Shown here: positions 10,452-33,539 of the stretch, piece by piece | How the letters are laid out: the number at the start of each line of letters is the position of its first letter | How positions within the stretch are numbered: position 1 is the stretch's first letter | NCBI GenBank assembly: GCA_964348955.1 | Contig: CAYGEN010000002.1 | Coordinates: forward strand, 1-42,011 | Length of the DNA: 42,011 nt | Source of the DNA: an uncultured Candidatus Saccharibacteria bacterium | Lineage (GTDB): Bacteria > Patescibacteriota > Minisyncoccia > Phycocordibacterales > 2-01-FULL-51-21 | Direction of reading: 5' to 3' | Translations under genes and position numbers: made by a program | Notes under the pieces: generated by a model | Told to the model about the DNA's origin: nothing | Database searches by the model: none | The model's input: only the letters and a program-made list of their open reading frames with translations

Positions 10452-10880
10452 TTACCGCCCCTCACCATCCATCGCCTTGTTGGCGAGGCGGTCCGCCTCC
10501 TTGTTTCGCTCACGCGGCACATGCACAAAGGAAAGATGCTGAAACACGCTCACGCGGAGATTGTGCACCTTAATAAATTGCGGGAAGAGCGTCGGTTCTT
10601 TAATTTGGTAGATATCGGAAAGTTGGCGCGCGATAAGCTCGCTGTCCAAGCGAACTTCAACGACAAGGTTTTTACACACCGACGCGCCAAAAAGTTTCTT
10701 CACTCCCTCAAGTCCCTGAATAACCGCTTCATATTCGGCGAAGTTGTTGGTTTGGCGTCCAAGAAATTTTGAAATTTCTTTCAGCACCTTCCCGCGCTCG
10801 TCTTGAATGACCACGCCCAGGCCGGAGGGCCCCGGATTTCCGCGTGCGCCGCCGTCCGTGTACAGCACTACTTTTTGCAT
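10452..10880 (-). CDS. rnhA: Ribonuclease HI
   Basis: MQKVVLYTDGGARGNPGPSGLGVV...NNFAEYEAVIQGL...ERNKEADRLAN. Start at the internal ATG 10880, with TATACT 7 nt upstream. Confidence 0.85.
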   Translation of the reverse strand: MQKVVLYTDGGARGNPGPSGLGVVIQDERGKVLKEISKFLGRQTNNFAEYEAVIQGLEGVKKLFGASVCKNLVVEVRLDSELIARQLSDIYQIKEPTLFPQFIKVHNLRVSVFQHLSFVHVPRERNKEADRLANKAMDGEGR

Positions 10881-10937
10881 ACGCTTTAGTATACTCCACA
10901 AAAAACGCACGGCGGCAGGTTGATACCTGCGGGTAAC

Positions 10938-10983
10938 CCCCCGTACGAATAACTCTTCTGTTGCCGAGTTATTCGTACGGGGG
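10938..10983. other. 18-bp perfect hairpin in the divergent rnhA / pilin-operon intergenic region
   Basis: cccccgtacgaataactc (10938-10955) and gagttattcgtacggggg (10966-10983) with a 10-nt loop. No flanking T-run. Confidence 0.85.
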
Positions 10984-11162
10984 TGGGAAATACGAAAATG
11001 CGGCACACCCTTGGAGAGTGGGCGTGGCAAGGCCGCGGATGAATGCGGTTAAAAATGTCAAACATTAAACACGCCGTGCATTGAAGTGCGTAATTAACAC
11101 TTTAGGACGGCGCGCAAGAAAGCAGGGCATCGGGTTTGGTAGTATACTGGTAAAAATGCTCC

Positions 11163-12959
11163 ATGCAATCTAGACACTATCGCGCCGGTTATACGCTCCT
11201 TGAGGTACTTATCGCCATGCTCATCTTGGCGTTAGTTTCGGTGGCGCTGTTCCAAAGTTATGGGAGCATCGTTACCGTCATCAAGGCGGCGCGCGTAAAA
11301 TCTATCGCGACCAATCTGGCGAATGAACAGTTTGAAATCGCTCGCAACCTGCCCTTTGACGCCGTCGGTATCGTAAACGGTATTCCCCCGGGGCTTTTGG
11401 TACACGAACAAACCGTCCCCCGAGATGGTTTTAACTTTGAAGTCATAACAACCATACGCAATGTTGACGACCCGTTTGACGGCACCATCGGCAGTACGAC
11501 AAACAAGGACCTCGCGCCGGCAGACTACCGTCTGGTCGAAATCAACATCGGTTGCGCAACCTGCGTGCCGCCGCTTCTGCCTATCACGCTTACCAGCACC
11601 ATCGGCCCGCGCAATCTTGAAACGACCTCTAACAACGGCGCGCTTTTTGTGAATGTTTTTGATGCCACAGGGCTTCCGGTCGTGGGCGCCGATGTGCACA
11701 TTGAAAACAACACCCTCACTCCCCCCATCATCATTGACGACATCACTAACGCAAAAGGTGAACTGCAAATCGTCGACGTGCCGCCTGGCGCGGGTGCGTA
11801 CGCCATTTCGGTCTCAAAATCCGGCTACTCATCAGAACGCACATATCCAACCGGAGACCCCGACAATCCAAACCCCGTGAAGCAAGATGCCACGGTCGCT
11901 ATACAGGAACTTACCAACACCAGTTTTGCCATTGATGTTACGAGCGCGCTCAATGTGACAAGCTCAAACAACACCTGCGAAGCTATCGGCGATATTGACT
12001 TCAAGTTGAGCGGCACGAAACTCATCGGTACCAGCCCTGACATCCTGAAGTACACAAGCAACAATGCCACGAACGCGCAAGGGACGTTGAATGTACCAAT
12101 TCTTGAATGGGACGCCTACGCGCTTTCGCTCACCGACGCGGGGTACGACTTAGCCGGTTCCATTCCGTCCTTGCCGCTTGCGCTTAATCCGGGCGTCTCA
12201 CAGGATATGCGGCTTATCGCGGTGCCAAAAAATCCGAAGGGCCTCTTGGTAACCGTGAAGGACACCGCAACAGGTCTGCCGATTTCGAGCGCCGATGTAT
12301 CGCTGTCCGCCGGTCCACTTTTCCAGGTGGCGACCACCGGTCGCGGATTTCTTTCCCAGACGGATTGGTCGGGCGGTAGCGGGCAAGCCGACTTTATAGA
12401 CAAAACCCGCTATTTAAGTTCAAACGGCAACGTTGACACGACCAGTTCGCCGGGCGATCTGTATTTGAGCTTCTTTGCCGGCGAATACCAGCCAAACGGC
12501 ACGCTCATCTCGTCTTCTTTTGATACCGGCGCGGAAAGCAATTTTGCGCAATTATCTTGGGAGCCGCAAAGTCAGCCCCAAGATACCGGCGCGGACAGCG
12601 TAAAACTGCAACTCGCCACCAATACCGATAACGCAACGTGGAACTTCATCGGCCCCGACGGCACCGCGGGCACGTATTACACGCTCGCGGACAAAAACAT
12701 CAGCAGTGCCCACAACGGCAACCGCTATCTGCGCTACCAACTCTACATGAATTCGGCAAGCACCACGTTTACGCCGACCGTTTCCGATATCACCTTTACC
12801 TTTTCCTCCGACTGCATTCCCTCCGGCCAAACTTTTTTCTCCGGACTCTCCACCAACGATTACACGCTTACGGTAGAAAAGAGCGGCTACCAAATATATA
12901 GCGGCACGGTCACGGTCGCCGCGCCATGGCAGGAAGCGGTGGTTAATTTAACGCCATAA
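11163..12959 (+). CDS. Large prepilin-type (pseudopilin) protein with CarboxypepD_reg-like beta-sandwich repeats
   Basis: The N-terminus RAG/YTLLEVLIAMLILALVSVALF is a class III prepilin signal with Glu at +5. Repeats such as VNVFDATGLPVVGADVHIENN and LLVTVKDTATGLPISSADVSLS are present. Confidence 0.8.
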   Translation: MQSRHYRAGYTLLEVLIAMLILALVSVALFQSYGSIVTVIKAARVKSIATNLANEQFEIARNLPFDAVGIVNGIPPGLLVHEQTVPRDGFNFEVITTIRNVDDPFDGTIGSTTNKDLAPADYRLVEINIGCATCVPPLLPITLTSTIGPRNLETTSNNGALFVNVFDATGLPVVGADVHIENNTLTPPIIIDDITNAKGELQIVDVPPGAGAYAISVSKSGYSSERTYPTGDPDNPNPVKQDATVAIQELTNTSFAIDVTSALNVTSSNNTCEAIGDIDFKLSGTKLIGTSPDILKYTSNNATNAQGTLNVPILEWDAYALSLTDAGYDLAGSIPSLPLALNPGVSQDMRLIAVPKNPKGLLVTVKDTATGLPISSADVSLSAGPLFQVATTGRGFLSQTDWSGGSGQADFIDKTRYLSSNGNVDTTSSPGDLYLSFFAGEYQPNGTLISSSFDTGAESNFAQLSWEPQSQPQDTGADSVKLQLATNTDNATWNFIGPDGTAGTYYTLADKNISSAHNGNRYLRYQLYMNSASTTFTPTVSDITFTFSSDCIPSGQTFFSGLSTNDYTLTVEKSGYQIYSGTVTVAAPWQEAVVNLTP

Positions 12960-13579
12960 TGCGGTCTGTGGCACACAACAATTTCTCGCGGGGCATGTCG
13001 CTCATGGAAGTGTTTATAGGAATGGCTATCGCCACACTCATTTTAGCCGGCCTATGGGCCATTCAGAAAAACTTTACGTCGTCCAATACCTTTTTGGAAA
13101 AAAGCCTGCGTGCCCAGGAAGAGGTGCGGCGCACATTTAAAATGATGGTCACGGAGATACGCTCCGCATCCGGCTCAAATACCGGCACCTACGCCGTAGA
13201 GCAAGCGAGCAGTACCTCCTTTATCTTTTACGGCGACATCGACGACGATGTGCTCAAAGAGCGCGTGCACTATTATTTGGACGGCACGACTCTCAAAAAG
13301 GGGGTGGTTAAACCAACCGGCACGCCTCTTTCCTACAATCTTGCCTCGGAGTCGGTCTCGGAAGTGCTTCACAATATAGATAACGGCATAGTGCCGCTTT
13401 TCAGTTTCTACGATATTTCTTACGCAGGCACCAGTTCTCCCCTTGTTGAGCCGGTAAACATCGCTTCTATCCGTCTGGTAAAAATAACCGCCAAAAGCGA
13501 CGAGGACGCTGCCAAGCCGCCCGGTCCAATCACTTTCACAACACAAGTGACTATTCGGAATCTGAAAGACAACTTATGA
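12959..13579 (+). CDS. Prepilin-type N-terminal cleavage/methylation domain protein (minor pilin-like)
   Basis: SRG/MSLMEVFIGMAIATLILAGLW. The start overlaps the upstream stop (TAATG). Confidence 0.75.
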   Translation: MRSVAHNNFSRGMSLMEVFIGMAIATLILAGLWAIQKNFTSSNTFLEKSLRAQEEVRRTFKMMVTEIRSASGSNTGTYAVEQASSTSFIFYGDIDDDVLKERVHYYLDGTTLKKGVVKPTGTPLSYNLASESVSEVLHNIDNGIVPLFSFYDISYAGTSSPLVEPVNIASIRLVKITAKSDEDAAKPPGPITFTTQVTIRNLKDNL

Positions 13580-15021
13580 AAAACGCAAAACACGGACAGC
13601 TTTTGATACAGGTATTGGTGTGGAGTGCTATCGCCGCCATTTTCGTAAGCGGTTTTGTCTCCTGGGCGGCCATCAATCTCAAAGCGGCGCGTACCGTCGT
13701 TGCGCGCGAGCAGGCGATACAAATTGCCGAAGCGGGCATTGACTACTATCGCTGGCATCTCGCCCATGCGCCTACCGATTACAAAGATGGAACCGGTGCG
13801 CCCGGCCCCTACCCTCATCTCTACTACGATAAGGACGGCAAAGTGCTCGGTTCTTTTACGCTCGCTATCACGGCGCCGCCGCTTGGCTCGTCGCTCGTAA
13901 CCATTCGCTCAACCGGTGTGGCAAGCTCAAGCGAAGGCGTATCGCGCGCCATTGAGGCGAAATTCGCCAAACCGTCATTTGCAAAATACGCGGTCGCGGC
14001 AAACGACGCTATGCGTTTCGGCGCCGGTACCGAGATATTCGGACCCATTCACTCAAACAACGGGGTGCGCTTTGACGGCATCGCGCACAACCTTGTTACG
14101 AGCGCCATGGCTAATTATGACGACCCCGACCACAGTGGCGCAGATGAATTTGGAGTCCATACACACGTTAATCCGCCGCCCGGCTCCGGTATTAACGACA
14201 CCTTCCGAGCAAATGAGGCCCTGCCAAACCCCACACCAACGCGAAGTGACGTATTTTGGGCGGGACGGCAATTCCCCGTTCCGGCGATAGACTTTGCGGG
14301 TATTACCGCCGACCTCTCGCAGATGCGCACCGATGCGCAGGCGAACGGTTTTTATCGCACTTCCTCCGGCGCGCTTGGCTACCTCGTCGTTCTCAAGACC
14401 AATGATACCTTTGATTTGTATAAAGTTACGAGTCTGGTCAATCCGCCGAGTCAGTGCTCCAACACGCTGAATCAGTTGGGCTGGGGCACCTGGAGCGTCA
14501 ACAACAAAACGCTTCTCGGCAACTATGCCCTCCCGAACAACGGCGTCATCTTTCTTGAGGACCACACCTTTGTTGAGGGGAAGATTACGACGGCACGCGT
14601 CACTATTGCCGCGGCAACATTTCCCGACAACCCGGCGACGCGGAAAAGTATTACGGTCAATCATAATCTTCTCTACACTACCTACGACGGGCAGGATGTG
14701 ATATCCCTTATCGCTCAACAAAACATCAATGTCGGTTTTGTGAGTGATGACACGCTCCGGATTGACGGCGCGCTCATCGCGCAAAGCGGCAGAGTGGGTC
14801 GGTACTACTACTCAAATAAATGCACCACATACTATGTGCGCAACACCATCACCCTCTACGGGATGATCGGCACAAATCAGCGCTACGGCTTCGCCTATAC
14901 GAACGGCACCGGCTACGGGATTCGAAATATCAACTACGACGCCAATCTTCTTTACGCGCCGCCGCCGAGCTTCCCCCTTACGTCGGACCAGTACGAGATT
15001 GTTTCGTGGGAAGAAATGTAA
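13576..15021 (+). CDS. PilX-like / pilus-associated large protein with an N-terminal hydrophobic helix
   Basis: KHGQLLIQVLVWSAIAAIFVSGFVSWAAI is an N-terminal helix without the +5 Glu. It overlaps the upstream gene by 4 nt (ATGA). Confidence 0.6.
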   Translation: MKNAKHGQLLIQVLVWSAIAAIFVSGFVSWAAINLKAARTVVAREQAIQIAEAGIDYYRWHLAHAPTDYKDGTGAPGPYPHLYYDKDGKVLGSFTLAITAPPLGSSLVTIRSTGVASSSEGVSRAIEAKFAKPSFAKYAVAANDAMRFGAGTEIFGPIHSNNGVRFDGIAHNLVTSAMANYDDPDHSGADEFGVHTHVNPPPGSGINDTFRANEALPNPTPTRSDVFWAGRQFPVPAIDFAGITADLSQMRTDAQANGFYRTSSGALGYLVVLKTNDTFDLYKVTSLVNPPSQCSNTLNQLGWGTWSVNNKTLLGNYALPNNGVIFLEDHTFVEGKITTARVTIAAATFPDNPATRKSITVNHNLLYTTYDGQDVISLIAQQNINVGFVSDDTLRIDGALIAQSGRVGRYYYSNKCTTYYVRNTITLYGMIGTNQRYGFAYTNGTGYGIRNINYDANLLYAPPPSFPLTSDQYEIVSWEEM

Positions 15022-18764: not shown

Positions 18765-19730
18765 TTAATAGCCGATGATGTCTATCTGCCCCGAGCGGTT
18801 AATGTCAAACTTCTTTCCAAAAATAATCGGGGTCGTTGAGGTTGCATTCGGGGGCACATAAAACGTGTCAATGGTCGTCTGGATGAAATCAGTGCCGTGT
18901 GAGCTGGTCCCTTGTATGGTGTAGGTGATTTCGTAAGTCCCGGGATTAGCCGCGCCATTGTACACGCCGACATACTCACCCGGAGCATTCTCGGTTAGCG
19001 TTATGAGTGTCACTTCCTGATTCGGGTTCGTAATATGCGCCACGACCGTCACGCCGCCGACCGGTGTTGAGTTTCCACCGCCGCTCTGCTCAACCTGTAG
19101 CGTGATAATGACTTTTTGAGGAGCCGCGGCTACGCTCTCAAGCCCCGGCGAAACAGAAATGGGCGGCGCGCCGACCGGCACTTCAATGGTGTATGGGTCG
19201 GGAGTGTCTCCCTCGTTTGAAAGAACGACCGTCCAATTGCCCGCCGCTTTGTTGTTCGCCACCGTAATGGTGGTTGAGGTTGTTTTGCCGTCTTCCGCAG
19301 ACACCTTCTTGACACTCACCTTTGTTTTCCCCACACTTTGCGTCGTTGTTTCCTTGCTTGGTTTAAGCACATTCCCGAGTGGGTCAATGAGGGTAATGGT
19401 CGTTTGTGTGCCGGCTAACACCCTAAACAGAAGTGTGTTTGCGGGACCGATGGTAATAACCTGATTCGTTTCCGCATGAGGCGGCGTAAAACTCTTGGTG
19501 ATATTCGGCTGCACATTACTCCATATTAAACGAGCGCCGGATGTCCCTGCCGACCCTGCGCTTTGAGTTCCCGAGCCCTGTGCGAGGATATCAGCTACAT
19601 CCTGTACATTCTGCGGAGTCTGCTCGGGAGATGTTTGAAATTGGAGTCCCGCATACCCCGCGCCGATGAGAATAATGAGTGAGGCAAGCACAAGAGCTAC
19701 CGGAACAATCCACCCTCTGTTCATTTGCAT
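18765..19730 (-). CDS. Secreted or anchored protein with Ig-like beta-sandwich repeats
   Basis: N-terminal TM/signal WIVPVALVLASLIILIGAGYA, then T/S/V-rich beta repeats. Start ATG 19730 is preceded by TATACT plus 7 nt. Confidence 0.55.
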   Translation of the reverse strand: MQMNRGWIVPVALVLASLIILIGAGYAGLQFQTSPEQTPQNVQDVADILAQGSGTQSAGSAGTSGARLIWSNVQPNITKSFTPPHAETNQVITIGPANTLLFRVLAGTQTTITLIDPLGNVLKPSKETTTQSVGKTKVSVKKVSAEDGKTTSTTITVANNKAAGNWTVVLSNEGDTPDPYTIEVPVGAPPISVSPGLESVAAAPQKVIITLQVEQSGGGNSTPVGGVTVVAHITNPNQEVTLITLTENAPGEYVGVYNGAANPGTYEITYTIQGTSSHGTDFIQTTIDTFYVPPNATSTTPIIFGKKFDINRSGQIDIIGY

Positions 19731-19816
19731 ATATAAAAGTATACCCACACATGGGCGTCGTGCAAAGCCCTCGCGTGGGTATACCTGCCGCGCCCTCATT
19801 GAGAGAAAAAGAGGGG

Positions 19817-26792: not shown

Positions 26793-26969
26793 ATAGATAA
26801 CAATAAGACGGCTATAGTTGTCTTATTGTTATCTTTTCAATTTCTCTCATATACGCATACTGCCAAATACAAAGTACAACGAGTATGAATACTTATGCTA
26901 TAGCATAAGTATTCATACTCGTTGGGTTGATATTGGCGTTGATATTGGTGTTAAGGCAATCGTAAAATA
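26789..26969. repeat. Conserved 3' module of the beta-propeller paralogs, copy 1
   Basis: Contains hairpin gataacaataagac/gtcttattgttatc (26796-26833, followed by TTTT) and a 46-nt perfect palindrome (26878-26923). Confidence 0.9.
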
Positions 26970-29276
26970 TCAGAAATTCTTGAATCCTGTTTGTACTCTG
27001 GTTGCGGCTACATCCACCGTAAGATAAGAGTCCGGTACATCGGAAACCTCTCCGTCGCTTCCCACTATCGTAATGGCGAAATTTTTTGGCAGTCCGGCTG
27101 GCGCTTTGGAAAAGGTAACGGTCATAACCGAACTAGCCGAAGAGTCACCGCCTTGGGAAGGGTCCAAGGAAGTAAAGGGTGAAAATGTAACGGTACTCCC
27201 CGGCGGCAGTTCTGGCGAGTCCGAAACAAGCGTAAGCGTTATGTTGGAAAGCGGTCTGTTCGGAGTTGCATATCCAGCAAACGGCACGGCAACGATGGTG
27301 GTTTTAGCGACCGCACCGCCCGTGCCGATAAATGTAACGCTCGTCTGAATATTGGGACTATAAATATAGAATCCCGCGGGCGATACCGTTACCGATGTAT
27401 CTGCACGCGCCTCTCCCGCAAGCCCCTCGCAGTGAAGTGAAAGCTGATAGGTGTTGCCTACTCCCGTGAATGGCCCGACGTCGCTTTGCACCTGTGTTAT
27501 GGTCGGCACCGATTTAGGCCCTCCCCAGTTTAAAACCCCAGGGTTCGCGCTCGCCGTGCAAGTATTAAAGCTGTTAGAGCCGAACCATGAGAGTTCAGTA
27601 TTCTGGCCATCCCCGACAACTGCCGGATTTGCCGTGAGTGTGAGCGTCTGCGGCGACTTTTTATGCACGCCGCCCTTTGCCGGACTGAACTCAATCCAGC
27701 CGATAACATCGCCGCCCCACGCATGGCCGTAGAAATCTTTGCCTTCGGTGATGCCGACTTGGTAGTTGGAAGTGCCACACCCGGCAAAATCACCTTCGCC
27801 AATTGCTGACTCACAATCCAAACTAATCCACCCGTCCCAGCCGCCTGCCTGAGCGTCAATCGCGGAGAGTGCCCGCGCCCAGCCCGTTATTATTGCATCT
27901 GGAGAACCATTGTTGGAATAGGCATCCGGGTGAAAAGGGTCCCCACCCTCATTACTTTCCCCAAACGCAATCCACCCCACATTATCGCTCCACGCATACC
28001 CGGTCATGTCTCCAGTAAAATCATCAATCGTAACGCCGTAGGGAGGTATTGGCGTGCCTCCGAGGGGACACCCGGGAAGCGTTGTGCCGTCAAGAATCCA
28101 ATCCAGAGGGTTTGACAGTGGAGCGCTGAAGATTGAATCTGTGGCTACTCCAGTCTCACCTTCAACACCCCCAAAGAGATAAACGCGGTCGCCGATGGTT
28201 GCAATGCTTGAGAATACGAGCCCCACGGGGAGCTTTGCTCCTGTATTAACCCATCTCAATGGATCAGAAACCGGGGCGCGGAATATCATGTTGGTTATAC
28301 TACCCGGACCTTCGTACCCCCCAAAAAGGTAGACATAGTCGCCGATGACTTTGAGTTGGGAATGTGCAAGGCCGTTAGTGAGCGTGGCACCAGTATTGAT
28401 CCAGTTCGTGGGATCAGAAACTGGGGCGCTGTAGATGGTGTTGAGAGAATTAGAAAAAGCATCTCTTCCCCCAAAGAGATAAACATGGTCGCCGATGACG
28501 GCAAGTTGGGGGGCATAAAGACTACCAGGGAGTGTGGCATTGGTATTAATCCAGTTCGTGGGATCAGAAACTGGGGCGCGGAATATCATGTTGGTTATAG
28601 TGCCCGGACCTTCGTACCCCCCAAAAAGGTAGATATAGCCGCCAATGACAGCTGATTGGGAATGTGCAAGGCCGTTAGTGAGCGGGGCGCCGGTATTGCT
28701 CCAGTTCGTGGGATCAGAAACTGGGGCGCGGTAGATGATTTTGCTAGCAGAACCAAAAGGAAGGCTTCCCCCAAAGAGATATACATAGTCATCAGTGCCG
28801 TCACTATCAACATCAACGACAGCAAGTTGGGAACCATAAAGACCACTGGGGAGTGGTGTGCCGCCGGCATTGCTCCAGTTCGTGGGATCAGAAACCGGGG
28901 CGCGGTAGATGGTGTTGGTGACAAAAAAGTTAGTTCTTCCTCCAAAAAGATAAACATAGTCATCAGCGCCATCGCTATCAACATCAACGACAGCGAGAGA
29001 AGAGAGGTAGAGGGGCTCGTGAAGTTTGCCGACGACCACATTGTCGGAGGTACCATCGCCGTTTAAGTCGCAGTTCGCCGAGCTGAAGCTAATCCATCCC
29101 ACATTGTCGCTCCATGCCCAGCCGTAGACATTGTTAGAAGAAGCCGCGCGTGCAATTACTCCTTTTGAAAGAAGTATGTCAATGGCAAAAGAGCCGCCGA
29201 CCGTGAGAAGCGCCACGAGAAGCGCAATGAATATCTTGCGGTTCATAATGAGTGCGATACCGTTCATATCACTCAT
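26970..29276 (-). CDS. Secreted six-bladed Kelch-like beta-propeller protein with three GWxW..GWIxF motifs and C-terminal Ig-like domains (paralog 1)
   Basis: 768 aa. Signal-like MNRKIFIALLVALL. YGWAWSDNVGWISF, GYAWSDNVGWIAF and GHAWGGDVIGWIEF motifs. Six blades of the pattern YVYLFGG...I(Y/F)RAPVSDPTNW. The true start is probably ATG 29267 or 29246 because TATACT abuts the first ATG. Confidence 0.8.
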   Translation of the reverse strand: MSDMNGIALIMNRKIFIALLVALLTVGGSFAIDILLSKGVIARAASSNNVYGWAWSDNVGWISFSSANCDLNGDGTSDNVVVGKLHEPLYLSSLAVVDVDSDGADDYVYLFGGRTNFFVTNTIYRAPVSDPTNWSNAGGTPLPSGLYGSQLAVVDVDSDGTDDYVYLFGGSLPFGSASKIIYRAPVSDPTNWSNTGAPLTNGLAHSQSAVIGGYIYLFGGYEGPGTITNMIFRAPVSDPTNWINTNATLPGSLYAPQLAVIGDHVYLFGGRDAFSNSLNTIYSAPVSDPTNWINTGATLTNGLAHSQLKVIGDYVYLFGGYEGPGSITNMIFRAPVSDPLRWVNTGAKLPVGLVFSSIATIGDRVYLFGGVEGETGVATDSIFSAPLSNPLDWILDGTTLPGCPLGGTPIPPYGVTIDDFTGDMTGYAWSDNVGWIAFGESNEGGDPFHPDAYSNNGSPDAIITGWARALSAIDAQAGGWDGWISLDCESAIGEGDFAGCGTSNYQVGITEGKDFYGHAWGGDVIGWIEFSPAKGGVHKKSPQTLTLTANPAVVGDGQNTELSWFGSNSFNTCTASANPGVLNWGGPKSVPTITQVQSDVGPFTGVGNTYQLSLHCEGLAGEARADTSVTVSPAGFYIYSPNIQTSVTFIGTGGAVAKTTIVAVPFAGYATPNRPLSNITLTLVSDSPELPPGSTVTFSPFTSLDPSQGGDSSASSVMTVTFSKAPAGLPKNFAITIVGSDGEVSDVPDSYLTVDVAATRVQTGFKNF

Positions 29277-29320
29277 AGTATACTAGACTATGCGCATCAC
29301 TGGAGAGGGCGGTGTGGATT
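29212..29320. repeat. 109-bp perfectly identical 5' module (promoter plus first codons), copy 1
   Basis: Identical to 32032-32140. Contains the TAGTATACT -10 and a start-region hairpin. Confidence 0.9.
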
Positions 29321-29342
29321 CAAAAATCCCAAACCATAGGGG

Positions 29343-29367
29343 TGTAGCAAGGTGACACCTTGCTACA
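29343..29367. repeat. Solo copy of the IS200-like hairpin tgtagcaaggtg-a-caccttgctaca
   Basis: Perfect 12-bp arms. The same hairpin flanks the Y1 transposase gene 3.3 kb away. Confidence 0.85.
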
Positions 29368-29368
29368 C

Positions 29369-29534
29369 GGCACCGCATAGATAACCATAAGACGACTATA
29401 GCCGTCTTATGGTTATCTTTTCAATTTCTCCCATATACGCATACTGCCAAATACAAAGAGTACGAATACTTATGCTATAGCATAAGTATTCGTACTAGTT
29501 GGGTTGATATTGGTGTTAAGGCAATCGTAAAATA
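29369..29534. repeat. Conserved 3' module, copy 2
   Basis: Hairpin gataaccataagacg/cgtcttatggttatc (29380-29417, followed by TTTT) and a 38-nt palindrome (29459-29496). Confidence 0.9.
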
Positions 29535-32096
29535 TCAGAAATTCTTGAATCCTGTTTGTACCTTGACTGCTTTCACGAGCACGGTGACGGTGGAGTCCGG
29601 AGAAGGGTTGTTGGTGTCGCTTCCCACCACTTTAATATAAAAGTCTTGCGGCAGTGGGTATGGCGCTTTGGAAAAGGTAATGGTCATGAGCGAACCCTCG
29701 CTATACGCGGAAGAGCCGGTAAATGAGGAGGGTGCGAAGGTAATAGTACTTCCGGGTGGCAATGCGGGAGAGACCGTCCATGAAAGGTTTATGGTATTGT
29801 CCGTATTATAACCGGCAACCGGCGTGGCAAATATTTTGGTTTTAGCAACCGCGCCGCCCGTGCCGATAAACGCAACCGTTGGGTCACTAAGACGAGAAAT
29901 GGAAAAATAAGGAGCTACTACCGTTACCAATGTACTAGCATACGCTTCTCCCCCAGACCCCTCGCAGCGAAGTGAAAGCTGATAGGTGTTGCCTACTCCC
30001 GTGAACGGCCCGACGCTACTACTCGAAACAGGCGGGGGCGACTTTTTCTCACTCCCGACCTCGTTCCAGTTGCCAACTTCCACACCAGTGCCAGCCTGAC
30101 TCGCGCTCGCCGTACAAGTATTAAAGCTGTCAGAGCCGAACCATGAGAGTTGAGTATTCTGGCCATCTCCGACAACCGCCGGATTTGCCGTGAGCGTGAG
30201 GTTCTGCGGCGCCTTTTTGTGTACACCAAATTTTATGGCACTGACAACATTTGCCGGCTTGAACTCAATCCAGCCGATAACATCGCCGCCCCACGCATGG
30301 CCATAGAAATTTTCGCCCCCTGTAATACCCACTTGGTAATTGGAAGTGTTATTACAGCCGTTATCGGCAAAACCACTTTTGTCTTCTGCTGATTTACAAT
30401 CCAAGCTAATCCACCCGTCCCAGCCGCCTGCGTCGGCGTCAATCGCAGAAAGCGCCCGCGCCCAGCCGGTTATTTTCGCGTCGATAGAATCATTGTCGCT
30501 TCGCGCTTCGCACAACGGCTTGCAGAGTTTGCTTGCTGTTTTGTCCCGTCCATCAATGCGACCATCTTTGTCATTATCACCAAACGCAATCCACCCCACA
30601 TTGTCGCTCCACGCATACCCGGTCATCGCTCCGGTAAACTCGTTAATGGTAACGCCATAGGGAGGTACCGGCTCTCCCTCTAAAGGGCAACCGGGAAGCG
30701 TCATGCCGTCAATAATCCAATCAGTCGGGTCGGAAAGGGGGGCGCGAAAAATGTAATCATGTACTTCCACCCCTACTTTCAACCCGCTACCCTCACCTAA
30801 GTTGTCAATCCCACCGAAGAGATACACATAGTCGCCGATGGTTTCAATATTTGAATACGCACGCCATGCAGGAATTCTTGCACCCGTATCAACCCACTTC
30901 GTTGGGTCGGATACGGGGGCGCGGAAGATATTGCTGTAGAAAGTGCTTCCGAAAAGGTAGACGTAGTCGCCGATGACAGCGAGTGATGAGTTAACGACTC
31001 CCGGCTCGCCACCATTAAAATTGCCATCGCACGGCGTACCGGTATCAGTAAACGGGAGTTTCTTACCGGTATCCTCCCAATTTCCAGGGAAATATGGGTC
31101 AGTGATATCTGCGCGAAGGATGGAATCACTGCGGCCATGAAACCATACAACCGAATCGCCTAAGTATTCATCATTTGTCCCGCCAAAGAGGTAGGCGTAC
31201 TTGCCGATAACAGCTATATGCGACTTTTGAAGGCCGTGCTCCACATACTGTGTAAGAGTTTTTGGACACGTTCTAGGAGACATCTCACGCCAAAAAGTGA
31301 TTGGCGGAAGTTTTTTGCCGGTGTCTACCCAGTTTGCCGGGAATGTCGGGTCGGTGGTGTCTGCGCGGTAGATGACATCGGAACTTTGGTTGAAGGTATC
31401 ACGGATGGAGGCACCACCGAAGAGGTAAACGTATTTTTTGCCATTGGAGTCGGGGATGATGGCGATGGAAGAGTGTTCAAGTTTACCCGGAAGACGTATG
31501 GCCGAGTTTGCCTCCGTCATGTTCATCCAGTTCGTCGGGTCAGAAACGGGAGCGCGGTAAATAATGTCTTGTATGCCCCCGCTGTAATTACCTTCTTCGT
31601 TCACAGTATAGTCGCTCCCACCGAAGAGGTAGATGTATGGGTCTATCTTTATAATGCTTGAATTGCCGAGATTGCTCGGGAGCACTTTGCCGGTGTCAAT
31701 CCACTTTGTCGGGTCGGCGGTGTCTGCGCGGTAGATGACATTGGTGTAAGGGCCATATGAGCCCCCGTCCTTGTCAGTGCCCCCGAAGAGAAAAACGGAG
31801 TCACCGACAACTTGGAGGTGCGAGCTGGCAAGCGGTGCGGGAAGTCTGCCGGCAATTACATTGTCAGAAGTCCCGTCGCCGTCCAAATCACAGCTGTTTG
31901 AGTTGAAACTTATCCACCCGATGTTGTCGCTCCATGCCCAGCCGTAGACATTATCAGTAGAAGCCGCACGGGCAATCGCTCCTTTTGAAAGAAGTGAGTC
32001 TAGGGCAAGAGAGCCACCGAGCGCGAGGAGTGCCACGAGAAGCGCAATGAATATCTTGCGGTTCATAATGAGTGCGATACCGTTCATATCACTCAT
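29535..32096 (-). CDS. Secreted Kelch-like beta-propeller protein, paralog 2
   Basis: 853 aa. The N-terminal 24 aa are identical to paralog 1. It has the same three GW motifs and the same C-terminus VQTGFKNF. The blades are more divergent (YRADTADPTKW, YRADTTDPTFPANW, LRADITDPYFPGNW). Confidence 0.8.
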   Translation of the reverse strand: MSDMNGIALIMNRKIFIALLVALLALGGSLALDSLLSKGAIARAASTDNVYGWAWSDNIGWISFNSNSCDLDGDGTSDNVIAGRLPAPLASSHLQVVGDSVFLFGGTDKDGGSYGPYTNVIYRADTADPTKWIDTGKVLPSNLGNSSIIKIDPYIYLFGGSDYTVNEEGNYSGGIQDIIYRAPVSDPTNWMNMTEANSAIRLPGKLEHSSIAIIPDSNGKKYVYLFGGASIRDTFNQSSDVIYRADTTDPTFPANWVDTGKKLPPITFWREMSPRTCPKTLTQYVEHGLQKSHIAVIGKYAYLFGGTNDEYLGDSVVWFHGRSDSILRADITDPYFPGNWEDTGKKLPFTDTGTPCDGNFNGGEPGVVNSSLAVIGDYVYLFGSTFYSNIFRAPVSDPTKWVDTGARIPAWRAYSNIETIGDYVYLFGGIDNLGEGSGLKVGVEVHDYIFRAPLSDPTDWIIDGMTLPGCPLEGEPVPPYGVTINEFTGAMTGYAWSDNVGWIAFGDNDKDGRIDGRDKTASKLCKPLCEARSDNDSIDAKITGWARALSAIDADAGGWDGWISLDCKSAEDKSGFADNGCNNTSNYQVGITGGENFYGHAWGGDVIGWIEFKPANVVSAIKFGVHKKAPQNLTLTANPAVVGDGQNTQLSWFGSDSFNTCTASASQAGTGVEVGNWNEVGSEKKSPPPVSSSSVGPFTGVGNTYQLSLRCEGSGGEAYASTLVTVVAPYFSISRLSDPTVAFIGTGGAVAKTKIFATPVAGYNTDNTINLSWTVSPALPPGSTITFAPSSFTGSSAYSEGSLMTITFSKAPYPLPQDFYIKVVGSDTNNPSPDSTVTVLVKAVKVQTGFKNF

Positions 32097-32140
32097 AGTA
32101 TACTAGACTATGCGCATCACTGGAGAGGGCGGTGTGGATT
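32032..32140. repeat. 109-bp identical 5' module, copy 2
   Basis: Identical to 29212-29320. Confidence 0.9.
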
Positions 32141-32228
32141 ATCGCCCCCTAGCCCTCTACTCTACTAACTCTCTACTCTATGAGCACAAACCCACGCGAG
32201 CAGTCACATAGCCACGCGAGCAAAACAA

Positions 32229-32245
32229 GCAAGGTGCCACCTTGC
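32229..32245. repeat. Degenerate copy of the IS200-like hairpin (gcaaggtg-c-caccttgc)
   Basis: Occupies the same position relative to the 3' module as the copy at 29343-29367. Confidence 0.7.
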
Positions 32246-32250
32246 GGCGC

Positions 32251-32436
32251 GGCACCGCATGCATAGCAATAAGACGGCTATAGCCGTCTTATGGTTATCT
32301 TTTCAATTTCTCCCATTCTCCCATATACGCATACTGCCAAATACAACTAGTACGAATACTTATGCTATAGCATACGTATTCGTACTAGTTGGGTTGGTAT
32401 TGGCATTGATATTGGCGTTAAGACAATCGTAAAATA
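32251..32436. repeat. Conserved 3' module, copy 3 (orphan)
   Basis: Hairpin ataagacggcta/tagccgtcttat (32269-32292) and a 42-nt palindrome with one mismatch (32347-32388). Confidence 0.9.
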
Positions 32437-32472
32437 TCAAAAATTCTGGAATCCTGTTTGTACCTTAACTGC
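32437..32472 (-). pseudogene. Stump of a third beta-propeller paralog (last 11 codons plus stop)
   Basis: The reverse complement reads AVKVQTGFQNF*, compared with KAVKVQTGFKNF* in paralog 2. Similarity ends at about 32472, 8 nt from the hairpin at 32481. Confidence 0.6.
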
Positions 32473-32480
32473 AAGGGGGG

Positions 32481-32505
32481 TGTAGCAAGGTGACACCTTG
32501 CTACA
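32481..32505. repeat. IS200-like hairpin plus duplicated left-end sequence (32481-32527)
   Basis: tgtagcaaggtg-a-caccttgctaca followed by gagcattaaaggtatagttagt. The same ~45-nt unit recurs at 32680-32728. Confidence 0.85.
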
Positions 32506-32679
32506 GAGCATTAAAGGTATAGTTAGTCGTATAGTCTCAATAGCCTTGCACCATTTGATGGAATAACATCAAGCTATGGCATACACATCAAATCAGAATC
32601 TCCTATCTTCCTAAGATAAGACAAGAGGCAACACAGCTGGTTCATAGGGGCTGGAGTGCTTGAAAAGTCGGGTGGCAAG

Positions 32680-33471
32680 GTAGCAAGGTGTCACCTTGCT
32701 ACAATAAGCATTAAAGGTATAGTTAGTTAAAGGTATGGGAAACCGAGTGCCGTTTGCGCCAGATGAATGGTACCATTGTTATAGTCGTGGTGTTGAGAAA
32801 CGCCGCGTATTTGAAAACACCAGAGACTACCAACGTTTTATACAAACTCTATACTTAGCTAACAGCACCGAACCGATTCATCAAGACAACCTGCGTAAAT
32901 TCTCCCATGAAGAAATACTGAGCCAGCGGCGCGGCGACTTACTCGTTGCGGTCGGTGCATATTGCCTAATGCCAAACCATTTTCACTTACTATTGAAAGA
33001 GCTTGTAGATGGCGGGATTACACAGTTTATGCGTAAGGTAGGCACTGCCTATACTATGTATTTCAATATTAAAAATGAGCGTGTTGGTAATCTGTTCAAC
33101 AAACCATTTCGTTCAAAACATATCAATGACGATCGATATTTGAAGTGGGTGCCTCAATATTTACACCTTAATCCTGCTGAACTCTTCGAGCAAGGATGGA
33201 AAGAGGGCAAAGTAAAGAACTTCAAAAGTCTTACACAAAAACTGCGGCACTACCCATATAGCAGTTTTAGCGACTACTGCGGTATACAGCGTGTGGAAAG
33301 ATCAATTCTTCATGAGCCTTCGGTGGAAATGTTGAATGAGGATATGACTCCTGCCGCTAAACTCATTTCCAAAGCGCGTGGTTACTATCAAGAGCTTTCT
33401 TTGTGACAAAGTTATAGCTAGCGTTATAGTAAGGTAGCAAGGAGGAGAGGTAGCAAGGTGACACCTTGCTA
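32680..33471 (+). mobile_element. IS200/IS605-family (tnpA-only) element or REP/RAYT-like unit bounded by cognate hairpins
   Basis: Hairpins at 32680-32702 and 33451-33471 flank the Y1 transposase ORF. GC content is visibly lower than in the surrounding sequence. Confidence 0.7.
32735..33406 (+). CDS. tnpA: HUH-Y1 transposase (IS200-like / RAYT-like)
   Basis: 223 aa. The HUH motif is in YCLMPNHFHLLLKE. The catalytic Tyr region is QYLHLNPAE. Confidence 0.85.
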   Translation: MGNRVPFAPDEWYHCYSRGVEKRRVFENTRDYQRFIQTLYLANSTEPIHQDNLRKFSHEEILSQRRGDLLVAVGAYCLMPNHFHLLLKELVDGGITQFMRKVGTAYTMYFNIKNERVGNLFNKPFRSKHINDDRYLKWVPQYLHLNPAELFEQGWKEGKVKNFKSLTQKLRHYPYSSFSDYCGIQRVERSILHEPSVEMLNEDMTPAAKLISKARGYYQELSL

Positions 33472-33539
33472 TAGCGCCAGTTGCTTTTGTGCTGTGTGTC
33501 TGTGTGTTAAGCTAGAAAATATTAGCGGCGGGAATAACA

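Follow-up and report, generated by a model that had tools for sequence, protein, structure and literature searches.

The locus and its two genes

The subject of this analysis is a pair of adjacent minus-strand genes, here designated P1 and P2, in a 42,011-nucleotide (nt) stretch of DNA (contig CAYGEN010000002.1 of assembly GCA_964348955.1), the whole of which is called the window below. An original prediction from the sequence had described them as tandem secreted β-propeller paralogs with constant ends and variable blades and had read them as a variable surface adhesin family. Its observation was confirmed and its interpretation was partly supported. The two open reading frames (ORFs) of 768 and 853 amino acids (aa) proved exact in their coordinates, and both are intact tandem paralogues. 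Their predicted parts are as follows.

26970..29276 (-): P1, 768 aa, with leader, hairpin 1, nested six-blade Kelch propeller, hairpins 2-4, two immunoglobulin (Ig)-like domains and tail (from the ORF, Pfam Kelch matches and alignments to P2 and to the relative P0061)
29535..32096 (-): P2, 853 aa, with the architecture of P1 and long propeller-loop insertions (from the ORF, the Pfam Kelch_6 match and the blade alignment)
29139..29276 (-): leader of P1, aa 1-46; P2 equivalent at 31959-32096 (from family hydrophobicity and small-x-small statistics and the transmembrane (TM) helix in the P0061 model)
29085-29123 (-): hairpin 1 of P1; that of P2 at 31905-31943
28083..29024 (-): Kelch propeller insert of P1, aa 85-398, six regular blades of ~50 aa each
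30702..31844 (-): Kelch propeller insert of P2, aa 85-465, six blades of 48-84 aa
27672..28082 (-): hairpins 2-4 of P1, aa 399-535; P2 equivalent at ~30222-30701 (from family alignment invariants and AlphaFold2 models of relatives)
26997..27671 (-): two Ig-like domains of P1, aa 536-760; P2 equivalent at ~29562-30221 (from 36% identity to P0061 and its model)
26973..26996 (-): tail VQTGFKNF of P1; that of P2 at 29538-29561

P1 and P2 align end to end by BLASTP with 52% identity over 883 columns and 16% gaps. The N-termini had been called identical, which holds for residues 1-24 and not beyond, the first 85 residues being 81% identical. The C-terminal octapeptide VQTGFKNF is the same in both proteins, as had been predicted.

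A scaffold with four aromatic hairpins

The aromatic motif G(W/Y/H)AW(S/G)...GWI(S/A/E)F, of which three copies per protein had been predicted, is present three times in both P1 and P2 and nowhere else in the 42-kb window.

29085-29123, 27963-28001 and 27687-27728 (-): aromatic motifs of P1
31905-31943, 30582-30620 and 30261-30302 (-): aromatic motifs of P2

A fourth, degenerate motif is the third in order. The full series, GWAWSDN(V/I)GWISF, GYAWSDNVGWIAF, GWARALS..GGWDGWISL and GHAWGGDVIGWIEF, fits invariant columns of a family alignment, and both proteins show the four motifs, the invariant Gly and Trp columns and the conserved spacing that characterize this hairpin family. At least 636 relatives of P1 aa 395-768 were found, and those with a named source are Patescibacteria or metagenome-assembled genomes (MAGs) named only as 'bacterium'. 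Typical members are 300-470 aa long and have no propeller. The family layout consists of a hydrophobic leader, four hairpin motifs with invariant Gly and Trp, at least one Ig-like domain and a short tail. No Pfam or NCBIfam model covers the hairpin-motif region in the family, and full-text literature searches for the motif strings and for Kelch in the Candidate Phyla Radiation (CPR) returned nothing relevant.

AlphaFold2 models of two relatives, P0061 and P0210, reached predicted local distance difference test (pLDDT) values of 81 and 82, respectively, and both contain a TM helix, four β-hairpins and two connecting strands. The P0061 model additionally has two β-sandwiches and a disordered tail, and P0210 is a minimal 219-aa member with leader, hairpin domain and tail only. 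Since the β-sandwiches of P0061 match tandem Ig/FN3 domains in Foldseek searches, and P0061 is 36% identical to the window proteins, the predicted Ig-like C-terminal domains were borne out by an indirect route. The hairpin domain itself had no Foldseek neighbour in the PDB (best E 0.17, probability 0.07) or BFVD (best E 0.54), and the family profile had no match among PDB sequences. Kinship of the domain with choline-binding or cell-wall-binding hairpin repeats was considered and found unsupported, with no significant Foldseek match in PDB or BFVD. A single full-length MAFFT alignment of P1 was discarded, having set hairpin 1 of the relatives without Kelch against the last blade, and the two models were built from clean family alignments.

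Position of the propeller within the scaffold

The alignment of the relative P0061 covers P2 residues 42-78 and 470-853 and passes over the propeller. The family consensus at the insert loop is FNCxNxxxCxxxxYGV, and cysteines bracket the insert exactly, at C69 and C403 in P1 and at C69 and C470 in P2. On these alignments, the propeller is a nested insertion in the first loop of the hairpin domain, between two conserved cysteines, and a disulfide probably spans the base of the insert (C69-C403 or C69-C470). The cysteine totals are even, 6 in P1 and 10 in P2, and even, paired cysteines would suit an extracytoplasmic protein. The two extra propeller cysteines of P2 sit in the insertions of blade 4 and blade 5.

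Separate combinations of Kelch with the hairpin domain were observed inside hairpin 3 in P0039 and as N-terminal fusions in P0005, P0010 and P0041. Because the insert of P0039 lies elsewhere in the hairpin domain, the domain evidently tolerates large nested inserts at more than one site. P0039 itself has 837 aa and stands on a 3.3-kb contig; its Kelch insert is located between GWIRAVAGDG and TNGWDGWISL, with a Gly-rich segment before it. The arrangement of P1 and P2, with the propeller in the first loop, was found in no other protein when 1.84 billion cluster representatives were scanned exhaustively with HMMER and an index of 5.8 billion protein clusters was searched twice. End-to-end coverage of the scaffold was given only by P0061 and P0322, both of which are Kelch-less.

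Blades and loops of the two propellers

The original prediction had proposed six Kelch-like blades and a profile search as a check, and Pfam Kelch profiles indeed matched both proteins above their cut-offs. P1 matched PF24681 (E 1.3e-24, 87.2 bits, cut-off 50), Kelch_6 (69.1 bits, cut-off 25.3) and Kelch_1 (42.2 bits, cut-off 20.1). P2 matched Kelch_6 (E 3e-13, 49.6 bits, cut-off 25.3), and its PF24681 score of 39 bits was under the cut-off of 50. When the sequences were cut at the conserved Trp and the 12 blades were aligned, six blades were obtained for each protein, with the conserved core LP..gL..S.lavI..gdYVYLFGG ... IyRAPvSDPT..nW. The blade subtype YxYLFGG...IYRAPxSDPxxW is found also in metagenome proteins of 2,000-7,000 aa.

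Among the blades of P1, the pair 3/5 is 82% identical in protein and 88% in DNA, the pair 1/2 72% and 77%, respectively, and the pair 2/4 81% in DNA; all pairs other than 3/5 and 1/2 are 46-65% identical in protein. Blades 3/5, 2/4 and 1/2 are related by intragenic duplication, and the earlier description of P1 blades as near-identical was overstated. The DNA-level repeats claimed for P1 are real: the 21-mer CCAGTTCGTGGGATCAGAAAC has four exact copies in P1 and one with 2 mismatches in P2, where none would be expected by chance. Positional correspondence between the blades of P1 and P2 is kept only in blade 6 (72% nt identity).

The changes in propeller length between P1 and P2 are confined to four blade loops, and the largest are after LP and after LFGG. 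Insertions after LP lengthen blade 4 of P2 by 22 aa and its blade 5 by 19 aa, and those after LFGG add 4 to 9 aa to P2 blades 1, 2, 4 and 6. A further site is the loop before the YxYLFGG strand, with DVDSDGxDD in the first two blades of P1 and PDSNGKK in blade 3 of P2, and a 3-residue insertion (FPA, FPG) stands before the final Trp in P2 blades 3 and 4. In a Kelch blade, GG ends strand B, Tyr or Phe lies in strand C and Trp lies in strand D, and the D-A and B-C loops form the canonical ligand-binding face of the propeller. By this standard blade assignment, the two largest sites of length change are the D-A and B-C loops. Since most of the length difference between P1 and P2 thus lies in loops of the binding face, the two propellers most likely bind different ligands. 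Motifs of the DxDxDG type, which resemble calcium-binding loops, were also seen at P1 aa 65-83 and in blades 1-2 of P1 (VDVDSDGxDD). In P2, such motifs are at aa ~507-519 (DNDKDGRIDGRD). The motifs differ between the paralogues, and Pfam FG-GAP scores 20.1 bits, just under its threshold of 22.1.

Export leader and C-terminal tail

P1 probably starts at Met11 (MNRK...); a hydrophobic stretch of 22 residues comes next, and ARA|AS lies 6 residues before hairpin 1. A small-x-small site within 14 residues before hairpin 1 was found in 141 of 148 relatives. P1 and P2 look exported through a Sec-type leader, which would be cleaved at this site. The claim that the proteins are secreted thus gains support from the hydrophobic leader, the small-x-small site conserved in the family and the paired cysteines.

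Among 170 relatives with the hairpin motif, 95 have a penultimate Glu (90) or Asn (5). Of these 95, 67 have Pro at -6, and position -4 is usually aromatic or aliphatic. The extension ...W-K-E-I-x-P-x is found in another 29 relatives. In 1.24 Mb of related Paceibacteria DNA, the motif P-x-hydrophobic-x-E-x-COOH ends 14 of 1315 ORFs, and ten internal control offsets gave 0-1. An N-terminal hydrophobic segment is present in 13 of the 14 tail-bearing ORFs, compared with a background of 34%, and the hairpin domain is absent in nine. Pfam searches on eight of these nine found PKD, DUF11, TSP1 or InlB-repeat in five and nothing in three.

Related loci with the tail motif: L007, L009, L011, L016, L037, L042, L050, L056, L071, L077, L088

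The tail thus generally marks the exported multidomain proteins of this lineage and, with no TM helix following it, is a candidate for an undescribed sorting or docking signal.

The tails of P1 and P2 (Q-T-G-F-K-N-F) have Thr at -6 and Asn at -2, in the places of Pro and Glu. A graded series runs from PGFEEF in P0322 through PTGFENF in P0061 to QTGFKNF in P1 and P2. The window tails are a degenerate form of the family tail, homologous by position, and a sorting or docking role is plausible for them, at lower confidence than for the canonical tail. It had been suggested that the conserved C-terminal Phe could be a sorting signal. A C-terminal Phe signal of the outer-membrane type was rejected, because the family signature is Glu at -2 and not the terminal Phe. 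Patescibacteria are also generally regarded as having no outer membrane. Tripartite C-terminal sorting signals consist of a signature motif, then a TM helix and then a basic cluster (10.1101/2023.06.07.544157). P1 and P2 end at ...GFKNF with no hydrophobic segment, and do not have this sortase/exosortase arrangement.

Divergence of P1 and P2 and comparison with related genomes

The scaffold after the propeller is 60.5% identical between P1 and P2, which are mutual best matches there, the next best matches being 35-37% identical. The propellers of P1 and P2 are only ~38% identical to each other, and the P1 propeller is 50-56% identical to many unrelated proteins. The variable blades of the original prediction were thus confirmed, with diversified, insertion-bearing blades in P2 and the propeller as the divergent part (~38% vs 60% for the scaffold). 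Synonymous divergence (dS) between P1 and P2 is 0.55 in the leader, 0.67 in the hairpins, 0.40 in the first Ig-like domain and 1.0 in the second, and the synonymous sites of the propeller are saturated (proportion of synonymous differences, pS, 0.77). With a scaffold dS of 0.4-1.0 and a saturated propeller, the duplication is old. The shared junctions and the orthologous blade 6 suggest that a single propeller insertion took place before the duplication. The interior of the propellers may have diverged in place or been replaced in part from other Kelch genes.

A set of 80 NusA loci from GTDB species representatives was used for synteny. The window NusA is 65-77% identical to those of MAGs labelled Patescibacteria or Parcubacteria, and the closest named relatives are Candidatus Taylorbacteria (73-75%), which makes the organism a CPR member of the Paceibacteria type. 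In the related scaffold L003, the NusA gene of which is 76% nt identical to that of the window, P0061 is the sole gene between pyrophosphatase and NusA, and no palindromes are present downstream of it. The same slot in the window holds P1, P2, a stump of a third copy and a gene resembling a transposase associated with repetitive extragenic palindromes (REP; REP-associated tyrosine transposase, RAYT). NusA and pyrophosphatase are directly adjacent (<160 nt) in 36 of the 80 loci, and five further loci have a gap of 0.5-1.5 kb, the two largest of which hold unrelated ORFs. No gene with both hairpin and Kelch was found within 9 kb in any of the 80 loci. Hairpin-family genes occur elsewhere in several of them, often between the pilus ATPase and NusA. 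Since the slot is often empty and L003 has a single Kelch-less gene there, the locus is a lineage-specific insertion in a conserved backbone that was later elaborated by propeller gain and duplication. The comparison across relatives that the original prediction had proposed thus revealed a lineage-specific, expanded locus, with one Kelch-less gene in L003 and an empty slot in 36 of 80 loci.

Third-copy stump, identical ends and flanking repeats

The stump of a third copy that had been predicted at 32437-32472 is real, and identical blocks and palindromes were found around the gene ends.

32437..32472 (-): third-copy stump of 11 codons (AVKVQTGFQNF*); the 3' intergenic region, here in its third copy, comes after it at 32263-32436
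29212..29320 (-), identical to 32032-32140: 109-nt block, 44 nt upstream of ATG and the first 22 codons
26949..26996 (-), identical to 29514-29561: 48-nt block, covering the final 8 codons with the stop codon and 21 nt past it
26877..26924: perfect 48-nt palindrome downstream of P1, with centre GCTATAGC; compensatory changes in the copies at 29454-29501 and 32344-32391
26795..26834: 40-nt palindrome; copies at 29379-29418 and 32263-32300
29344..29366: REP-like 23-nt palindrome GTAGCAAGGTGNCACCTTGCTAC between P2 and P1; copies at 32482-32504, 32680-32702 and 33450-33472
32229-32256: degenerate copy of the REP-like palindrome
32735..33406 (+): RAYT-like gene of a Y1 (IS200-type) transposase, flanked by the palindromes at 32680-32702 and 33450-33472

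The stump resembles P2 in its residues AVK. The sequence around the 109-nt and 48-nt blocks is 60-88% identical, and the exact identity of the blocks is therefore not due to chance; it was caused either by gene conversion or by nucleotide-level constraint on promoter, leader and 3' end. The 3' block of the stump has 4 mismatches in 50 nt compared with the intact copies, a drift that would fit relaxed constraint on a dead copy. Short direct repeats (gctcgcgtgg twice, and gtagag-type) were noticed at 32141-32230, only upstream of P2 and just outside the 109-nt block, and a 12-nt tandem repeat (2.4 copies) at 26922-26948, only in the 3' region of unit 1.

The original prediction had spoken of flanking recombinogenic repeats. 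The repeats exist, and they were identified instead as hairpins together with REP-like palindromes around the RAYT-like gene. The 48-nt and 40-nt palindromes are both centred on CTATAG, show compensatory changes between copies and occur only at these three sites in the window. With the REP-like palindrome, present in four copies and one degenerate copy, as the third, the three hairpins of each 3' region fold far better than shuffled sequence (z = -9.3). The 3' palindromes look like terminators, the 48-nt one being terminator-like on the minus strand. The RAYT-like gene matches Pfam Y1_Tnp with 24.4 bits (cut-off 23) and NCBIfam REP_Tyr_transpos with 31.7 bits, under the cut-off of 80. Together, the gene and the palindromes resemble a small REP/RAYT system, here in the genome of a Patescibacterium. 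One REP-like copy (32482-32504) is 9 nt from the stump, and from this position it is plausible that a REP/RAYT-associated event truncated the third copy. A 21-nt direct repeat, AGCATTAAAGGTATAGTTAGT, adjoins two of the REP-like copies (32507-32527 and 32707-32727).

Variation at the locus

Two other assemblies share the window at 99.99% and 100% identity, and the contigs of four DNA runs showed no differences inside 26970-32500; assemblies and runs all come from one study. In run X2, one contig joins 26937 to 29503 and skips exactly one 2565-nt unit, the joint lying in a 59-nt shared repeat. Either a genuine variant with one copy or an artefact of assembly could account for this joint. Two further joints, 27843/31914 and 28916/30949, were rejected as variants, as their matches are only ~24 nt long with unlike sequence beyond, and they probably come from homologues in other community members.

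No invertase, recombinase, invertible element or reverse transcriptase of a diversity-generating retroelement (DGR) was found among the window ORFs scanned, and no simple-sequence tracts were found in coding or promoter regions. An RVT_3 match at 10452-11030 belongs to an RNase H-type protein. DGRs are known from other CPR genomes; one at this locus was rejected, since no reverse transcriptase was among the ORFs scanned.

Other genes of the window

The window also encodes EF-G, S7/S12, ComEC, RecJ, PGK, TIM, NusA, pyrophosphatase, trigger factor, ClpP and RNase Y, as well as a type IV pilus ATPase and platform protein (T2SSE, T2SSF) and pilin-like genes. Rfam and tRNA scans of the window gave no match. 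A pilin-like operon at 11163-15021 (+) comprises three ORFs: one of 598 aa that combines a prepilin N-methylation motif with a CarboxypepD_reg domain, next to it a prepilin-like one of 206 aa and then one of 481 aa with no family match. A 344-aa exported-looking ORF at 18765-19799 (-), with a weak Invasin_D3 match, sits in the PGK/HIT slot; in the syntenic relative L009, this slot holds a hairpin-family gene and then a 353-aa ORF of no known family.

Proposed function and alternative explanations

With moderate confidence, we propose that P1 and P2 are paralogues exported to the cell surface of a Paceibacteria-type Patescibacterium, with the propeller as a ligand-binding head. A Sec-type leader would export the protein, and the mature form would begin with a Patescibacteria-specific domain of four aromatic β-hairpins that carries the Kelch propeller in its first loop, between two conserved cysteines. 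The two Ig-like domains would form a stalk, and the short flexible C-terminal peptide would probably dock or sort the protein at the envelope. The heads of P1 and P2 would share the blade core YxYLFGG ... IYRAPxSDPxxW and differ in their loops. Architecture, family membership, nesting, synteny and divergence pattern are shown by the data above; cleavage of the signal peptide, disulfides, surface location, binding, the function of the tail and any part in host attachment or adhesion are inferred. As to its history, a Kelch-less family gene may have entered the NusA/pyrophosphatase slot and acquired the propeller once, because both copies share the junctions. Tandem duplication would then have given at least three copies, the propellers would have diverged, that of P1 partly through intragenic blade duplication, and the third copy would have been lost down to 11 codons beside the REP/RAYT cluster.

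Several points weigh against this proposal. The structure models were made of the relatives P0061 and P0210 and not of P1 and P2 themselves. The hydrophobic stretch of the leader, with 22 residues, could be an uncleaved membrane anchor. The tails of P1 and P2 do not have the Pro and Glu that define the family tail and may work differently. The high divergence of the propellers could stem from module replacement and not from diversification in place. No RNA runs were found, and Kelch propellers can also be enzymes.

One alternative is that P1 and P2 are secreted Kelch enzymes that the scaffold tethers and that act on glycans of the host or the environment; a NanM-like sugar mutarotase and a galactose-oxidase-like oxidase are examples. 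In its favour are a weak Pfam match of P1 to NANM and the annotation of some Kelch homologues as 'N-acetylneuraminic acid mutarotase', but these names are automatic labels and the NANM score of P1 (PF24996, 27.5 bits) is under the cut-off of 45. P2 has no NANM match, which leaves both proteins outside the NanM family by the profile threshold, and neither has an NCBIfam match. In addition, a conserved core with loops free in length would be unusual for a fixed active site, and we regard an enzymatic role as improbable. A structural role, in which the proteins are S-layer-associated or pilus-associated components of the envelope or an appendage and self-assemble through the hairpin domain or the tail, without being ligand-specific adhesins, is unlikely, if somewhat less so. 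The family is very widespread and includes the minimal member P0210, the tail is common to many exported proteins, and type IV pilus genes (T2SSE, T2SSF and pilin-like ORFs) are nearby. However, P1 and P2 have no pilin-type N-terminus, no conserved gene partner was seen across the family contexts examined, and the proximity of the pilus ATPase reflects conserved backbone synteny, with the slot usually empty. Some Kelch homologues are labelled Peptidase_S74 or tail-fibre, and P1 has a weak PHROG match of unknown function, which would suit phage-derived receptor-binding (tail-fibre-like) genes integrated in the chromosome. Yet the flanks are housekeeping genes in conserved synteny with no phage genes nearby, P2 has no PHROG match and the hairpin domain has no structural match in BFVD, so that a phage origin is very hard to credit.

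The remaining alternative is a programmed antigenic or phase-variation locus, in which the identical ends serve as recombination handles, gene conversion exchanges propeller segments between silent and expressed copies, and the stump is what is left of a donor. The exact identity of the 109-nt and 48-nt blocks amid 60-88% identical surroundings, the mosaic of divergence, the tandem units with a stump and the X2 joint that skips exactly one unit are all in its favour. The joint, however, lies in a shared repeat of an assembled contig and is possibly an artefact, and variation inside 26970-32500 is absent from the four runs and the two near-identical assemblies. The window contains two full copies only, with no archive of silent cassettes within its 42 kb, and the saturated synonymous sites of the propeller argue against recent exchange between P1 and P2. 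No recombinase, invertible element or DGR was found among the ORFs scanned, no simple-sequence tract in coding or promoter regions and no variant form in the contigs of the one study, and we judge this explanation quite unlikely. The idea of a variable surface adhesin family thus stands in part: an exported, modular, tandem arrangement with divergent propellers is supported, and an active variation system is not indicated.

A broader proposal can be made tentatively and is, in our opinion, doubtful in its full extent. The four-hairpin domain may be a new fold that acts as a general platform to display or anchor surface proteins in Patescibacteria, the P-x-hydrophobic-x-E-x-COOH tail may be a new lineage-wide C-terminal sorting or docking signal, and the locus may show such a platform gaining binding heads through a propeller in a disulfide-closed loop, tandem duplication and a loop diversification that changes partner specificity. 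Little is known of how Patescibacteria recognize their hosts and hold on to them, and the majority of the proteins that they export lack annotation. P1 and P2 form a natural pair with a common scaffold and different propeller faces, and if the propellers bind ligands on the host surface, the comparison of their loops would give a direct handle on specificity. Three by-products of the analysis are the most useful: the uncharacterised hairpin domain, the motif of the C-terminal tail, and the gene without Kelch that fills this slot in a related genome. The last dates the propeller gain, and the function of the first two, both lineage-wide, could explain the display of many surface proteins.

Comparison with known systems

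Variable surface families with conserved ends include Neisseria pilE/pilS, Borrelia vls and Mycoplasma vlp. P1 and P2 share with them the constant ends, the variable middle, the tandem copies and a truncated copy. They differ in having two full copies and an old divergence, and no recombination machinery, silent archive or variation was found for them. The REP/RAYT systems of NCBIfam NF047646 likewise have a Y1-transposase-like gene flanked by copies of a palindrome, here of 23 nt, with others scattered nearby; the candidate described here scores under the cut-off of that model and has five palindrome copies in 42 kb.

The Paceibacteria tail resembles LPXTG, PEP-CTERM and MYXO-CTERM (10.1101/2023.06.07.544157) as a short C-terminal motif on many exported multidomain proteins of one lineage. 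In contrast to these tripartite signals, it has no TM segment or basic cluster, and the protein ends 1-4 residues past the Glu.

With the hairpin family (P0061, P0322 and P0210), P1 and P2 have in common the leader, four hairpins, Ig-like domains and tail, and P0061 shares their genomic slot; what sets P1 and P2 apart from the usual members is the propeller in the first loop. As in other Kelch propellers (PF24681, PF13964 and PF01344), there are six blades of ~50 aa with a hydrophobic strand ending in GG, a conserved aromatic residue and Trp. Unlike typical Kelch propellers, those of P1 and P2 are nested within a loop of another domain and would be extracellular.

PilX2 is a propeller-bearing adhesin candidate in Saccharibacteria (PMC12206443). 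P1 and P2 would be comparable to PilY1 and to this PilX2 in displaying a β-propeller outside an epibiotic Patescibacterium cell as a candidate host-binding module. The propellers of PilY1 and PilX2 are seven-bladed, of the RCC1 or PilY1 type, and pilus-associated, whereas P1 and P2 have a Sec-type leader, six Kelch blades and no pilin N-terminus.

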